This document shows, piece by piece, positions 12,091 through 39,320 of a stretch of 54,762 bases of DNA. How positions within the stretch are numbered: position 1 is the stretch's first letter; the number at the start of each line of letters is the position of its first letter. The stretch spans positions 1 to 54,762 of the forward strand of contig CAZNJA010000001.1 of NCBI GenBank assembly GCA_964573245.1, given 5' to 3'. The notes under the pieces are model-generated. The model searched no databases, had not been told where the DNA came from, and worked only from the letters and a program-made list of their open reading frames with translations. The position numbers and the translations under genes are program-made. This DNA is from an uncultured bacterium (GTDB lineage Bacteria > CAIJMQ01).

Positions 12091-13514
12091 TCTATTTCCC
12101 CCTCCAACAGCCCACCCCTTACCTCTATAATCTTCACCTTTACAAGTTTACCGATTAAGTCTTTATCGCTTTTAAAAGAGACGGATTTAAAATTTCGTGT
12201 TTTGCCCACGCACCAGTCCCGACTTACGTCGGGACGATGCGGGGTTTCACCGAATGATTTACTTTTATTCTTTGTGTTATATCCTTCAACAAGAATCTCA
12301 ACTTCTTTGCCGATTAACTTTTCGTTTCTCTTCTGCACTATTTTTTTCTGCAGGGACAAGAGATTATTTAGCCGTTCTTTTTTTATCCCTTCAGGAACAT
12401 TGTCTTCCATTTCGGCGGCTTTTGTTCCCGGTCTTGTTGAATACTTAAATATATAAGACGCATCAAATTCTATTTCTTTGACAAGATTATAAGTATCCAT
12501 AAAGTTTTCTTCGGTTTCGGTAGGGAAACCGACCATTATATCGGTGGTAATACTCACATCTGGAATAGTTTTCCTTATTCTATCAACAAGCCCTTTGTAC
12601 TGTTTCTGTGTGTATCTTCTATTCATCAATTTCAAAATCTTATCGGAACCGGATTGCAGAGCCAGATGTAAATGTTCACATACTTTAGGTAGATCTCTCA
12701 CAGCTTCAATAGTAGCCATAGACATATCCTTTGGGTGAGAAGTGGTAAATCTAATACGCTCTATACCGTCTATCGCATTTATTGTCTTTAGAAGTTCAGC
12801 AAAACTCCTTTGGTTTTCGGTTTTCGGTTTTCCCCCGAGAAATCTGAAAGATTTCCGGGACTTTGGTCCTTGAAATTCCATAGAATTTCTAAGGGGGGTT
12901 TCGTAAGAATTGACATTTTGACCGAGAAGTGTTACTTCCTTTGTGCCTTTACGTGCTAATTCTTTAACTTCATCTTCTATTTCTTCTATAGGGCGACTTG
13001 TTTCTCTACCCCTAACATAAGGCACAATACAATAAGTGCAGTAGTTATTGCACCCACGTATAATAGCCACCCACGCGGATATTTTGTTCTCTCTTGTTTC
13101 ATAAACGGGCGGAGAGAAATCCGCATAATCTTCGGAGGTTTCAATACGCTTCCCATTGGTTTTTAATAAATCTTTTACAAATTCATTGATTTTGGGAATA
13201 CTGTAAGTCCCGCATACAAGATTTAAGCGAGGTATTTTTGTCAACAGGTTGATCCCCTCTTTTTGCGCCATGCATCCGCATATGCCGATTATCAGTTCGG
13301 GTTTTCTATCTTGCTTATACTTGCTCCATTTCCATAAATACGAATATACTCTTTCCTCCGCATGCTGTCTCACGCTGCACGTATTAACAAGTATTACATC
13401 CGCTTCCTGCCAGGCGCCGGTAAATTCATACCCTTCTTTCAACAAAAGCGATTTTATGATTTCGGAGTCGTATTTGTTCATCTGACAGCCGAAAGTCTGA
13501 ATAAATACTTTCAT
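12087..13514 (-). CDS. miaB: tRNA-i6A37 methylthiotransferase MiaB (radical SAM), with two in-frame palindromic insertions
   Basis: The start is set at MKVFIQTFGCQMNKYDSE. It has the radical-SAM CxxxCxxC motif (CNNYCTYCIVPY) and a TRAM-like C-terminus. Extra segments lie at NVNSY-[33 aa]-FAELL and in the TRAM region. Confidence 0.85.
   Translation of the reverse strand: MKVFIQTFGCQMNKYDSEIIKSLLLKEGYEFTGAWQEADVILVNTCSVRQHAEERVYSYLWKWSKYKQDRKPELIIGICGCMAQKEGINLLTKIPRLNLVCGTYSIPKINEFVKDLLKTNGKRIETSEDYADFSPPVYETRENKISAWVAIIRGCNNYCTYCIVPYVRGRETSRPIEEIEDEVKELARKGTKEVTLLGQNVNSYETPLRNSMEFQGPKSRKSFRFLGGKPKTENQRSFAELLKTINAIDGIERIRFTTSHPKDMSMATIEAVRDLPKVCEHLHLALQSGSDKILKLMNRRYTQKQYKGLVDRIRKTIPDVSITTDIMVGFPTETEENFMDTYNLVKEIEFDASYIFKYSTRPGTKAAEMEDNVPEGIKKERLNNLLSLQKKIVQKRNEKLIGKEVEILVEGYNTKNKSKSFGETPHRPDVSRDWCVGKTRNFKSVSFKSDKDLIGKLVKVKIIEVRGGLLEGEID
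12205..12244 (-). repeat. Nested hairpin element inside the miaB coding sequence
   Basis: The coding sense reads CCCCGCA-tc-GTCCCGAC-gtaa-GTCGGGAC-tgg-TGCGTGGG, translated as ETPHRPDVSRDWCVG. The inner palindrome CCCGACGTAAGTCGGG closely resembles those at 28841-28857 and 43012-43030. Confidence 0.6.
12812..12832. repeat. Heptamer tandem GGTTTTC x3 (within miaB)
   Basis: GGTTTTCGGTTTTCGGTTTTC lies directly 5' (plus strand) of the palindromic element at 12832-12898 and is translated as part of KPKTENQ. Confidence 0.7.
12832..12898 (+). repeat. Two-hairpin palindromic element (C-run / hairpin / GGGACTTTGGTC / hairpin / G-run) inside miaB
   Basis: CCCCCGAGAAATCtgaaaGATTTCCGGGACTTTGGTCCTTGAAATTCcataGAATTTCTAAGGGGGG. 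By my hand alignment about 75 percent of columns match the intergenic element at 37607-37677, including an identical 12-mer. Confidence 0.7.
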
Positions 13515-27321: not shown

Positions 27322-27400
27322 TCCTCCCGTAGTACTCCCGTAGGAGTACGGAGTCCCCCCTGTTAGTCTCGCCATTGTATCAGTGGCGGACTAGGGGGGA
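27322..27400 (-). repeat. Two-hairpin leader element L1 (C-run / hairpin / AACAGGGGGGACTCCG / hairpin / CGGGAGGA)
   Basis: The minus sense reads TCCCCCCTAGTCCGCCActgatacaaTGGCGAGACTAACAGGGGGGACTCCGTACTCCtacgGGAGTACTACGGGAGGA, followed by tttgttATG. It is a homolog of 28795-28865. Confidence 0.7.
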
Positions 27401-36285: not shown

Positions 36286-37614
36286 ATGTTTGCAAATCTA
36301 ACCGGCAAATTACAAGCGATTTTTAAAAATTTAAGAGGGCAGGGAGTAATCAGCGAAAGCAATATAAAGGAAATGTTACACGAGATTCAACTTGCTTTGC
36401 TTGAAGCGGATGTAAATTATAGAATAGTAAAAGAATTTGTTGAGGCCGTTGCGCAAGATGCTATCGGGCAAAAAATTATCACTAGTATTACTCCTTCCCA
36501 GAAATTGGTTCAAATAGTCCACGAAAAATTAATTGAATTACTCGGCAAAGACTCTTCGCCGCTAAAACACTCATCAAATCCACCTAACATTATTATGCTG
36601 GTTGGGCTGCAGGGAAGCGGTAAAACAACAACAAGCAGTAAATTGGCAAAGATTTTAACCAATAAAGGGAAGAACGTTTTACTTGCCGGGACAGACACAC
36701 AAAGGCCTGCGGCAAGAGAGCAGCTTCAATTTCTCGGGAAAAACTTGGGACTACCCGTGATTACGGATGGGAAAAATCCGATTGACATAGCTGTAAACGC
36801 GGTAAAGAAAGCGAATTCTATGGGCGCAGACGCTTTAATTATAGACACTCAGGGACGGCTTCATGTAAACAATGAACTGATGGAAGAACTTATCAGAATG
36901 AAAGAAGCGGTTTCTCCCTCCGAAATTCTACTCGTTGCAGATGCAATGACAGGACAGGATGCGGTAAATATCTCAAAAAGTTTTAATGAAAGATTAGGTA
37001 TAACAGGCGTAATCCTTACAAAGTTGGACACCGATACCCGCGGAGGAGCAGCAATATCAGTTAGGAAAGTTACAAATGTGCCGATTAAATTCATAGGCGT
37101 GGGTGAAAAAACAGAAGATTTGGAAATTTTTTATCCTGAGCGAATGGCTTCGCGCATATTAGGTATGGGAGATATCCTAACATTGGTTGAAAAGGCAGAG
37201 GTTGAAGTTGAAAAAGGCGATGCTCAAAGATTAGCAAAAAAACTTAAAGCGGAAAAACTCGACTTCGAAGATTTTCTTACTCAATTAAGACAGATGAAAA
37301 AAATCGGGCCTTTGTCCAAAATGCTAGACTATTTGCCAGTAGACCCTTCTTTAAAAAATTTTGATGTTTCCGAAGAAAGATATAAACATATAGAAGCTAT
37401 AATTTTATCAATGACTCTTGAAGAAAGGTGCAACCCACGTATAATAGACGGTCGCAGAAAAAAGAGAATTGCTGAAGGAAGCGGGACGAGTGTCCAGGAT
37501 ATAAATCAATTATTAAAGCAATTTTATTCCGTTCAAAAATTTGTAAAGGAAATGGCTGGCAAAGGAGCACAAATGAAAAGAAAGGGGTTTCTACCTAAGT
37601 TGATTTCCCCCTAG
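36286..37614 (+). CDS. ffh: Signal recognition particle protein Ffh
   Basis: 442-aa ORF with an NG domain (GLQGSGKTTT, DTQGR, TKLD) and a Met-rich M domain. The TAG stop lies inside the palindromic element at 37607-37677. Confidence 0.95.
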   Translation: MFANLTGKLQAIFKNLRGQGVISESNIKEMLHEIQLALLEADVNYRIVKEFVEAVAQDAIGQKIITSITPSQKLVQIVHEKLIELLGKDSSPLKHSSNPPNIIMLVGLQGSGKTTTSSKLAKILTNKGKNVLLAGTDTQRPAAREQLQFLGKNLGLPVITDGKNPIDIAVNAVKKANSMGADALIIDTQGRLHVNNELMEELIRMKEAVSPSEILLVADAMTGQDAVNISKSFNERLGITGVILTKLDTDTRGGAAISVRKVTNVPIKFIGVGEKTEDLEIFYPERMASRILGMGDILTLVEKAEVEVEKGDAQRLAKKLKAEKLDFEDFLTQLRQMKKIGPLSKMLDYLPVDPSLKNFDVSEERYKHIEAIILSMTLEERCNPRIIDGRRKKRIAEGSGTSVQDINQLLKQFYSVQKFVKEMAGKGAQMKRKGFLPKLISP

Positions 37615-37677
37615 AAATTGCAGAATGCAATTTCAGGGACTTTGGTCTCGGAAATTCTTCGAATTTCTCGAGGGGGG
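37607..37677 (+). repeat. Two-hairpin palindromic element (same family as 12832-12898)
   Basis: CCCCCTAGAAATTGCAgaaTGCAATTTCAGGGACTTTGGTCTCGGAAATTCttcGAATTTCTCGAGGGGGG. A further AGGGGGACT motif follows at 37690-37698. Confidence 0.7.
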
Positions 37678-37978: not shown

Positions 37979-38014
37979 AAATTGAGTACTTGATACTCGT
38001 AAAAACAAAAGATT

Positions 38015-38049
38015 AGAATTTGGTAGCGAGAATCTGGTATCGATAATCG
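38015..38049 (+). repeat. 14-nt tandem repeat (2.5 units) just upstream of trmD
   Basis: AGAATTTGGTAGCG / AGAATCTGGTATCG / ATAATCG, ending 11 nt before the trmD ATG. Confidence 0.6.
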
Positions 38050-38060
38050 TTTTTAATAAC

Positions 38061-38834
38061 ATGGATATCCATATATTGACTCTATTCCCGGGCATGTTTC
38101 GTGGAGTTCTAGAAGAAAGCATAATAAAAAGAGCGCAAGAAAAGGGGCTTGTTAAAATATTTTTGCATGATTTGAGAGAATTTGGTTTGGGTAAACGTAA
38201 AACTACAGACGACTATCCTTACGGCGGCGGCGCCGGAATGATTATGCGGATAGAGCCCGTGTATAACGCTATAAAAAAAATCAAGGCGAAAAATACCCGC
38301 CATTGCAGAACAGGCGGGCAGGAAAGAAAGAAAAATAAAATCAGGACTATTTTACTCACTCCGCAAGGAGAAATTTTAAACGAGGGAAAAAGCAAAAAAT
38401 TGGCAAAGGAATCATCGGTTATCCTTATATGCGGACATTATAAGGGATTGGACGAGAGAATACGTTTAAATCTTATTGACGAAGAAATATCCGTAGGCGA
38501 TTATGTTCTAAGCGGCGGAGAAATTGCCGCTATGGTTGTTGTGGATACGATAACAAGACTTATTCCTGGAGTTTTGGGGAACAAAGAATCCATGCGGTTG
38601 GATTCCTTTCATCAAAATATTTTGGAGGGGCCGTTATACACAAGACCCGTCGAATTCAAAGGAATGAAAGTTCCAGACTCTCTTTTATCGGGAAATCATG
38701 GGCAAATCTTCGATTGGAGAAGAAAAGAAGCGTTAAGGAGAACTTATTTAAAAAGACCCGAACTTTTTAATGTGATTAAGTTAAGCGAAAAAGACAAACA
38801 AATGTTAGAAGAAATAAAAAAAGAAAAACTGTAA
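38061..38834 (+). CDS. trmD: tRNA (guanine37-N1)-methyltransferase TrmD, with an in-frame hairpin insertion
   Basis: 257-aa ORF with MDIHILTLFPGMF, YPYGGGAGM, ICGHYKGLDERI, GDYVLSGGE and LLSGNH motifs. An extra NTRHCRTGGQER segment precedes the conserved LLTPQG. Confidence 0.93.
   Translation: MDIHILTLFPGMFRGVLEESIIKRAQEKGLVKIFLHDLREFGLGKRKTTDDYPYGGGAGMIMRIEPVYNAIKKIKAKNTRHCRTGGQERKKNKIRTILLTPQGEILNEGKSKKLAKESSVILICGHYKGLDERIRLNLIDEEISVGDYVLSGGEIAAMVVVDTITRLIPGVLGNKESMRLDSFHQNILEGPLYTRPVEFKGMKVPDSLLSGNHGQIFDWRRKEALRRTYLKRPELFNVIKLSEKDKQMLEEIKKEKL
38296..38322 (+). repeat. CCCGCC-N11-GGCGGGCAGG hairpin inside the trmD coding sequence
   Basis: aCCCGCCattgcagaacaGGCGGGCAGG has the same arms, loop length and 3' CAGG as the intergenic hairpin at 39252-39278. 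It is translated as TRHCRTGGQ. Confidence 0.6.
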
Positions 38835-38873: not shown

Positions 38874-39245
38874 ATGTTAGATGTAGGGCAAATAATAGAA
38901 AAACCTAGAATGAAGACAAAAATTTCTAATTTTCAAGTAGGGGACACAGTAAAAGTTTCTTTGAAAGTTAAGGAAATAATTAAGGAAGAGAGAGATAGAA
39001 AGAAAGGCAGTAAAGGAAAGGTTAGCCAAAGAGAAAAGATTTATCCGTTTCAGGGGATAGTGATAAAAAGAAAAGGCGGCGGCATAAGAGAAACTTTTAC
39101 CGTTAGAAAAGACAGTTACGGGATTGGCGTTGAAAGGATATTTCCGCTTCATTCACCGATAATTAGCGAAATACGGGTCTTGAAAAAAGGCAAGGTAAGA
39201 AGAGCAAAACTATATTATTTGAGGGATGGGAAGAAAAGAAAATAA
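38874..39245 (+). CDS. rplS: 50S ribosomal protein L19
   Basis: 123-aa ORF with [30 protein letters not shown] and [11 protein letters not shown] motifs. It carries a Lys/Glu-rich extra segment of about 15 aa relative to E. coli L19 (from memory). AACAGGGGGAC lies upstream of the ATG. Confidence 0.9.
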
Positions 39246-39251
39246 GTTCTA

Positions 39252-39278
39252 CCCGCCACTACTACAACGGCGGGCAGG
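39252..39278 (+). repeat. CCCGCC-N11-GGCGGGCAGG hairpin 7 nt after the rplS stop
   Basis: CCCGCCactactacaacGGCGGGCAGGG. The loop resembles the inner loop of L1 (ACTGATACAAT). There is no U-run, so it is not a classical intrinsic terminator. Confidence 0.6.
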
Positions 39279-39320
39279 GATGCTTGATGCTAGATTCTGG
39301 ATACTAGATACTAGATGCTC
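39279..39320 (+). repeat. Heptamer tandem array GATNCTN x6
   Basis: GATGCTT GATGCTA GATTCTG GATACTA GATACTA GATGCTC, in the convergent gap between rplS and the minus-strand gene ending at 39354. Confidence 0.75.

Follow-up and report, generated by a model that had tools for sequence, protein, structure and literature searches.

A nine-codon GC-rich palindrome in trmD is probably one copy of a dispersed repeat family in an uncultured bacterium

How does a GC-rich hairpin come to lie in frame inside a conserved tRNA-modification gene, and what does it mean for the encoded enzyme? This question is raised by a 54,762-nt stretch of DNA from an uncultured bacterium (contig CAZNJA010000001.1 of assembly GCA_964573245.1; hereafter the window), in which trmD (38061-38834, + strand), encoding tRNA (guanine37-N1)-methyltransferase, is an otherwise intact open reading frame (ORF) with full-length TrmD similarity. 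At 38296-38322 (+ strand) this gene harbors a 27-bp palindromic unit, CCCGCC-ATTGCAGAACA-GGCGGG-CAGG (in full, CCCGCCATTGCAGAACAGGCGGGCAGG), that is read in frame as TRHCRTGGQ. A second 27-bp unit, CCCGCC-ACTACTACAAC-GGCGGG-CAGG (in full, CCCGCCACTACTACAACGGCGGGCAGG), is located at 39252-39278 (+ strand), 6 nt 3' of the stop codon of rplS and with convergent genes on either side. The rplS ORF itself spans 38874-39245 (+ strand), and PF01245 is recorded for its orthologues on two further contigs, one from JGI (L153) and one from ENA (L154). A preliminary description of this DNA had reported the in-frame hairpin in trmD and its match with the hairpin 3' of rplS (rplS-3' unit), and the sequence and reading frame bear out both points: the two units, 930 bp apart, have common arms, the same 11-nt loop length and the same CAGG tail, and their loops are unlike at most positions. 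Our analysis indicates that the trmD hairpin very probably belongs to a dispersed family of GC-rich palindromes of 27 bp (CCCGCC, an 11-nt loop and GGCGGGCAGG), selfish or at least non-adaptive, that resembles repetitive extragenic palindromic sequences (REPs) and Rickettsia palindromic elements (RPEs) and is tolerated in a disordered loop of TrmD.

The genome of which the window is part (G000) is a metagenome-assembled genome of 1.46 Mb in 110 contigs, with 38% G+C and 93% completeness. The pattern CCCGCC-N9-13-GGCGGG has two matches in the window, compared with none in 100 shuffles, and is found at 26 loci in the genome, 14 of which combine an 11-nt loop with the CAGG tail. The strict pattern CCCGCC-N10-11-GGCGGGCA has 22 matches in the genome versus 0 for the reversed (not complemented) control, and 18 of these 22 strict copies have the CAGG end (CCTG on the other strand). 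Allowing up to two arm mismatches and up to one tail mismatch defines 68 core copies, 45 of them with an 11-nt loop and nearly all singletons; the genome-wide scan proposed in the preliminary description thus returned 22 to 68 copies where about none were expected by chance. With the strict pattern, copy numbers are 22 in G000, 19, 7 and 2 in three genomes of the same genus (G002, G001 and G003, respectively) and 0 in a genome of the same family (G004). The flank profiles of all 68 copies contain no target motif, and no target-site duplication is present at 57 of the 68. Nesting within outer palindromes does occur in G000 (at folC, at uvrC and at the element L1 described below), but as a rule for the placement of copies at the tips of such palindromes it was rejected (2 of 68 copies versus 1.1 under the null).

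How often these units fall within genes was judged from ORF length and Pfam, with no gene caller, a long ORF being a frame that is open for at least 40 codons on both sides of the unit. By this measure 30 copies are located in long ORFs and 38 outside them, so that about 44% of the family is genic. The ORF copies occur in either orientation and are distributed over more than 20 unrelated genes, and the peptide that they encode depends on frame, orientation and loop. Of the 30, 17 share the phase in which CCC-GCC gives Pro-Ala and the unit closes with Ala-Gly. Host genes were confirmed in 21 cases, namely trmD, by its match to solved TrmD structures, and 20 genes by Pfam: a FolC-like Mur ligase, RibF, PyrD, PyrK, a LarB-like protein, a PP-loop enzyme, Cmk, BamA, LeuS, LigA, CysS, a B12 radical-SAM enzyme, MnmG, UvrC, Der, RibD, ApbE, Mfd, Ogt and Thi4. 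A further in-frame unit (peptide PARQDSAGG) lies in the RpoC-like part of an ORF spanning C8:26334, which, by eye, joins RpoB-like and RpoC-like regions in one 2667-codon frame and may be an rpoB-rpoC fusion. The number of stop-free frames per unit is 5.3 of six for genic and 5.2 of six for intergenic copies, versus 4.5-4.7 when the loops are randomised; p-values for this comparison are optimistic, since the copies are related to one another.

The preliminary description had counted three in-frame palindromes in two tRNA-modification genes, trmD and miaB. This grouping does not hold, as the miaB element (12812-12898) belongs to a different repeat family, a double hairpin with C-run and G-run arms, and hosts of the 27-bp family are of every functional class. 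Because the 20 Pfam-confirmed hosts are ordinary conserved genes, tRNA-modification genes are not singled out, and a special link to them was rejected. Another double hairpin of the C-run/G-run type, CCCCCTAGAAATTGCAGAATGCAATTTCAGGGACTTTGGTCTCGGAAATTCTTCGAATTTCTCGAGGGGGG, is present at 37607-37677 of the window, where it overlaps the ffh stop codon and fills the ffh-rpsP spacer; it is of the same family as the in-frame miaB element and unlike the trmD 27-mer. The inner hairpin of L1, TCCGCCACTGATACAATGGCGAG (27368-27390, minus strand; CTCGCCATTGTATCAGTGGCGGA), is nested inside a CCCCCC...GGGGGG element. Its resemblance to the trmD hairpin, also noted in the preliminary description, reflects a real relationship, but it represents a sister subfamily with a loop of its own, ACTGATACAAT. 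The sequence CCCGCCACTGATACAATGGCGGG has four near-identical genomic copies, on contigs C3, C13, C21 and C39.

Comparison with relatives shows that the trmD unit is an insertion. The DNA alignment has an exact 27-bp gap at this position in G001-G004, the protein view agrees, the rplS-3' unit is likewise missing from these four genomes, and no target-site duplication was seen at the trmD or the rplS-3' junction. Insertion was precise and left no target-site duplication, and sites have been gained, lost or re-used among close lineages. The TrmD ortholog alignment proposed earlier places the insert in only 3 of 22 close TrmD homologues, the other 19 being without it. The three carriers have it at the same nucleotide position: G000 (CCCGCC-ATTGCAGAACA-GGCGGGCAGG), the JGI contig (87% protein identity; CCCGCC-ATTACAAAACA-GGCGGGCAGG) and the ENA contig (77% protein identity), which holds a tandem pair, CCCGCCACTATGGCACAGGCGGGCAGG and CCCGCCACAAGGGCACAGGCGGGCAAG. 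Across these carriers the arms are identical at 16 of 16 positions, the loops differ at 2 and 5 of 11 positions, and the single tail change is CAAG for CAGG in the second unit of the ENA contig; the residues encoded by the loop vary (C/Y and R/K/G). Conservation of the insert is therefore at the DNA level, the arms being kept while the loops drift, which is the opposite of residues conserved as protein without a DNA hairpin, the outcome that the preliminary description had named as speaking against a repeat.

These comparisons bear on two other explanations. The fragmented, metagenome-assembled state of the genome, in 110 contigs, could prompt the suspicion that the trmD insertion is an artefact of assembly or binning, but the independent JGI and ENA assemblies have the insert at the same nucleotide and a comparable insertion in cmk is present in two separate genomes, so we give an artefact virtually no credence. 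It is also conceivable that the nine residues form an adaptive surface loop of TrmD selected at the protein level, given that the insert has outlasted the split of two lineages whose nucleotide identity is 82-86% and that the third lineage has two units at the same place. This we consider highly improbable: the loop residues vary while the DNA arms do not, the segment is predicted to be disordered, most relatives are without the insert, and the same types of peptide occur in unrelated enzymes.

One origin for all trmD insertions is rejected by phylogeny. In a TrmD tree computed with the insert masked, the ENA lineage falls outside a clade (support 96/96) that contains many insert-free sequences. 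In approximately unbiased (AU) tests, whose groups were chosen with the tree already in view, placing all three carriers in one clade was rejected (p 0.0005), and a clade joining G000 with the JGI lineage was not (p 0.098). Since one clade of three carriers is rejected, at least two events have occurred at one nucleotide position of trmD. The rplS-3' site has a history of its own, being empty in the JGI contig and filled in the ENA contig by a unit that is identical at 27 of 27 positions, in the midst of genes that are 73-80% identical. A recombination tract was rejected as the cause of this identity, because the flanking genes are 73-80% identical throughout; no exact match to the rplS-3' 27-mer was found in other GTDB representative genomes. 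Re-used sites may reflect repeated insertion, precise excision or conversion. Directly 3' of the rplS-3' unit, positions 39279-39320 of the window consist of a run of heptamers (GATGCTT GATGCTA GATTCTG GATACTA GATACTA GATGCTC), and the equivalent positions of relatives have similar runs of differing sequence.

The proximity of the two units in the window, with identical arms and tail, raises the possibility that the trmD unit arose locally, by template switching or gene conversion from the rplS-3' hairpin or another copy, and differing variants at one site in ligA and uvrC are what conversion between copies could yield. However, the loops of the two window units differ at most positions, the JGI lineage has the trmD unit and an empty rplS-3' site, and at 6-10 bp the arms offer very little length for homologous recombination, all of which makes a local origin very unlikely.

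Junctions in other host genes agree with those in trmD. When 12 host segments were joined into one chimeric query, the stretch that bears the element proved to be shorter in most congeners, usually by about 9 residues and, for some of the 12 genes, by about 18 or by 20-30. Exact 27-bp gaps were found in relatives for mnmG, pyrD and pyrK, in G004 for ligA, and in G001 and G004 for cmk; ribD differs by 27 bp from G002 and by 54 bp from the others, and cysS, with an ambiguous net difference of 15 nt, was left out of the clean insertions. No target-site duplication was found at the filled-versus-empty junctions of cmk, mnmG, pyrD and ligA. The cmk insertion is common to G000 and G003, in which one arm has decayed in the same way, to CCCTCC, and the loops differ at three positions; it is old enough to have been inherited. 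In ligA and uvrC, congeners have differing variants of the family at the same site. Sites filled by the 27-mer in G000 (cmk, der, folC and uvrC) hold insertions of other sizes in congeners, including about 96 additional nt that contain an in-frame stop in cmk of G002 (G002:C99:2412-3038) and a difference of +13 or -17 residues in der, and these four sites look like hot spots.

We then considered what the insert means for TrmD. Alignment with the Staphylococcus aureus enzyme (3ky7; E 7.5e-74) is full-length with a single 14-residue gap at the insert, alignment with Escherichia coli TrmD (1p9p; E 3e-62) has a 12-residue gap at the same place, PF01746 is listed for all TrmD homologues, and the top Foldseek matches of the predicted model are all TrmD structures (SPOUT-type fold). 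The preliminary description had put about 12 extra residues before the conserved LLTPQG. The 12-residue gap against E. coli is indeed there, but only nine residues come from the element, since exactly these 27 bases are missing from trmD of G001-G004; the other 3-5 of the 12-14 extra residues are a Lys-rich stretch that is present in close relatives too. An AlphaFold2 model, built from 12 sequences and with a mean predicted local distance difference test score (pLDDT) of 70, which limits detail, places the insert between a helix (64-81) and a strand (94-105), in the loop before the strand leading to the knot, as had been anticipated. Residues 81-90 of the model have pLDDT below 50, and strand 94-105 runs into LLTPQG, the start of the knotted cofactor site. 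The insert is at the N-terminal end of that strand and, by the usual topology of such folds, would point away from the ligand side. The nine extra residues are thus predicted to be disordered; because of this predicted disorder the enzyme most likely works normally, and for TrmD the insert is most likely a harmless decoration. It should be noted that rpsP is located directly 5' of trmD (window 37979-38060) with no rimM between them, and that the order is the same on the JGI and ENA contigs.

If not for the protein, the hairpin might be kept for a function in cis, such as a pause or tuning of trmD translation, stabilisation or termination of the rpsP-trmD-rplS transcript, or an antisense stop. 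A role as RNA elements has been suggested for REPs located 3' of genes (PMC3733652), the rplS copy lies 6 nt past the stop codon between convergent genes, and the arms are conserved at the DNA level in three lineages. Both units form 6-bp stems of about -7 kcal/mol as DNA (z about -2.3 to -3.2), and on the minus strand a T-run comes after each of them, a terminator-like arrangement. On the + strand, however, neither hairpin has a U-tract 3' of it. An Rfam search of the hairpin gave no match, so a known RNA family was rejected as its identity. Further, both units are absent from the four nearest genomes, the trmD insert is absent from 19 of 22 close homologues, and the unit is found, in either orientation, in more than 20 genes that are unrelated to one another. 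A cis function is, on this evidence, unlikely.

Returning to a dispersed, non-adaptive repeat, its presence in so many genes could be explained by its own sequence. The unit is exactly nine codons long, it has almost no stops in any of the six frames, and small, flexible residues are encoded by its arms, either Pro-Ala ... Ala-Gly or Thr-Arg ... Gly-Gly-Gln. Given these three properties, copies landing in surface loops of proteins could be translated through without harm. The mover is probably an enzyme that recognises hairpins in single-stranded DNA, of the HUH/Y1 type or another, and that acts in trans. Insertion sequences of the IS200/IS605 type insert without target-site duplication, via hairpins in single-stranded DNA, and insertion without duplication, as seen here, fits such single-strand HUH chemistry.

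A search for Y1 transposase genes (Y1_Tnp, PF01797) returned a single, weak match in G000, a 427-aa ORF on contig C12 that retains the catalytic-Tyr motif RYIH and has lost the HUH motif (KVY versus HYH in an intact relative). This ORF (C12:23856-25169; L031) has an N-terminal Y1-transposase-like domain, then a membrane segment and an uncharacterised C-terminal domain; it carries, in frame, a family-like hairpin of its own (PATVSMAGV, C12:24732-24754), and a PDB sequence search with it returned nothing useful. G002 has intact proteins that combine HUH and helix-turn-helix (HTH) parts, among them one of 313 aa (L118:1465-2406). Y1 genes are present in 8 of 10 other carrier genomes (none in G043 and G047), an excess that is not telling, since 6 of 14 control-set genomes also match. 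An association with REP-associated tyrosine transposases (RAYTs), as in a REPtron, was rejected on the grounds that the G000 ORF has lost its HUH motif and that the intact Y1 genes of relatives have no flanking repeats.

Several of these results weigh against the interpretation as a dispersed, non-adaptive repeat. No mobilising enzyme was found: G000 has no intact Y1 gene, an absence that is unproven because the assembly is 93% complete, G001 has 7 copies of the repeat yet no Y1 gene, and the repeat flanks none of 17 Y1 loci in carrier genomes. Simple random insertion with filtering gives no account of the re-use of the very same nucleotide site in trmD, ligA and uvrC, or of the fully identical rplS-3' unit in so diverged a lineage. 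Finally, the neutrality of the insert for TrmD is something that we infer.

Among known systems, the closest parallels are REPs and RPEs. Intragenic REPs of the GTAG- and CGTC-tagged superfamilies, which include REPs of Opitutus terrae as well as RPE-4 and RPE-6 of R. conorii (Di Nocera, De Gregorio, Rocco 2013, PMC3733652), are known as singles and dimers that encode 20-30 residues, often in repair genes such as uvr and mfd, and the CGTC REPs have no known dedicated transposase (PMC3733652). The family described here is like REPs in that its palindromes are short (20-40 bp), dispersed and conserved at an asymmetric end, often just 3' of genes and of strain-variable copy number, and some of them are in frame inside known genes as singles or dimers. 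REPs are mostly intergenic. Points of difference are that about 44% of the present copies are in ORFs; that the end tag is CAGG/CCTG in place of GTAG or CGTC; that no RAYT gene has the repeat at its flanks; and that the unit is exactly 27 bp, one variant being conserved nearly base for base across several phyla. RPEs (RPE-1 to RPE-10; Ogata et al., 2000) are the classic in-frame insertions in unrelated housekeeping genes, and their mover is unidentified (PMC10969869). Like them, the palindromes described here are found in frame in many unrelated housekeeping genes and are translated through, at positions thought to be compatible with folding. RPEs, however, are about 100-150 bp long, have a conserved peptide and are confined to Rickettsia, whereas the present unit has 27 bp (9 residues), variable loop-encoded residues and hosts in free-living uncultivated phyla. 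[quoted passage not shown] A parent insertion sequence with matching ends was not found in a transposase search that covered Y1_Tnp only. The 27-mer family thus works like REPs and RPEs and departs from both in their defining features, namely the end tag, the RAYT link, and the size and peptide of RPEs. A literature search returned no relevant report of this sequence or of such palindromes in Omnitrophota. The trmD insertion is ordinary in kind; notable in the family are the nine-codon unit, the high genic share, sites that are used again and a conservation that extends over several phyla.

This last feature concerns the variant CCCGCCTGCCAANNNTTGGCGGGCAGG, all 27 bases of which take part in a hairpin with an 11-bp stem and a loop of 3 nt (-9.5 kcal/mol). 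It has 94 occurrences in 91 stretches of representative genomes, against a chance expectation, by our own estimate for 24 fixed bases, of about 0.004 matches. The carriers are labeled as Saprospiraceae/Lewinellaceae (Bacteroidota), Dehalococcoidia/Chloroflexi, Cloacimonadota, Omnitrophota, Elusimicrobia, KSB1, WOR-3, Falkowbacteria (candidate phyla radiation, CPR) and Methylomirabilis. In-frame copies are present in Pfam-verified genes for Mfd, PheT, TilS (twice), Lnt, Psd, a SpoU methylase, an aldehyde dehydrogenase and a terminase-like protein. In Dehalococcoidia a second repeat, GATTGCYWCGCT[27]TCGCTCGCAATGAC, regularly encloses the 27-mer; this composite, seen on Dehalococcoidia/Chloroflexi contigs that include L292, L298, L304, L311, L322 and L330-L334, is read as ...DLPAKAWQAG... 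in the frame of PheT, TilS and Mfd. Three Dehalococcoidia genomes (L353, L370 and L375) have the 27-mer at one orthologous position of an ORF that is weakly similar to the nuclease domain of phage terminase large subunits, and because of this terminase-like host the repeat may also reside in prophage genes. Matches were obtained on 115 viral contigs, nearly all of them single and uninformative; one IMG/VR contig (L226) has two copies of a TGCC variant.

A bolder and tentative interpretation, which we regard as possible but doubtful, is that the 27-mer is a nine-codon "nano-element" that spreads between phyla, with hairpin-recognising machinery that would insert and remove it precisely and re-use positions, and with a sequence (27 nt, nearly free of stops) shaped for residence in essential genes. 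It fits the 94 cross-phylum occurrences, the in-frame copies, the re-used sites in trmD, ligA and uvrC, and the identical rplS-3' unit.

Short palindromes that are translated inside essential genes are textbook knowledge only for Rickettsia, with passing mention for some REPs. In the free-living uncultivated lineage studied here (Omnitrophota/Ratteibacteria) this in-frame habit is frequent, with about four in ten copies in ORFs. Units of this kind inflate and vary the lengths of marker proteins, can mislead alignments and gene trees, and are markers of recent strain divergence. If one enzyme system or horizontal spread explains the cross-phylum 27-mer, it would be among the smallest mobile DNAs known, and its copies would serve as a natural experiment that shows which loops of proteins accommodate insertions.

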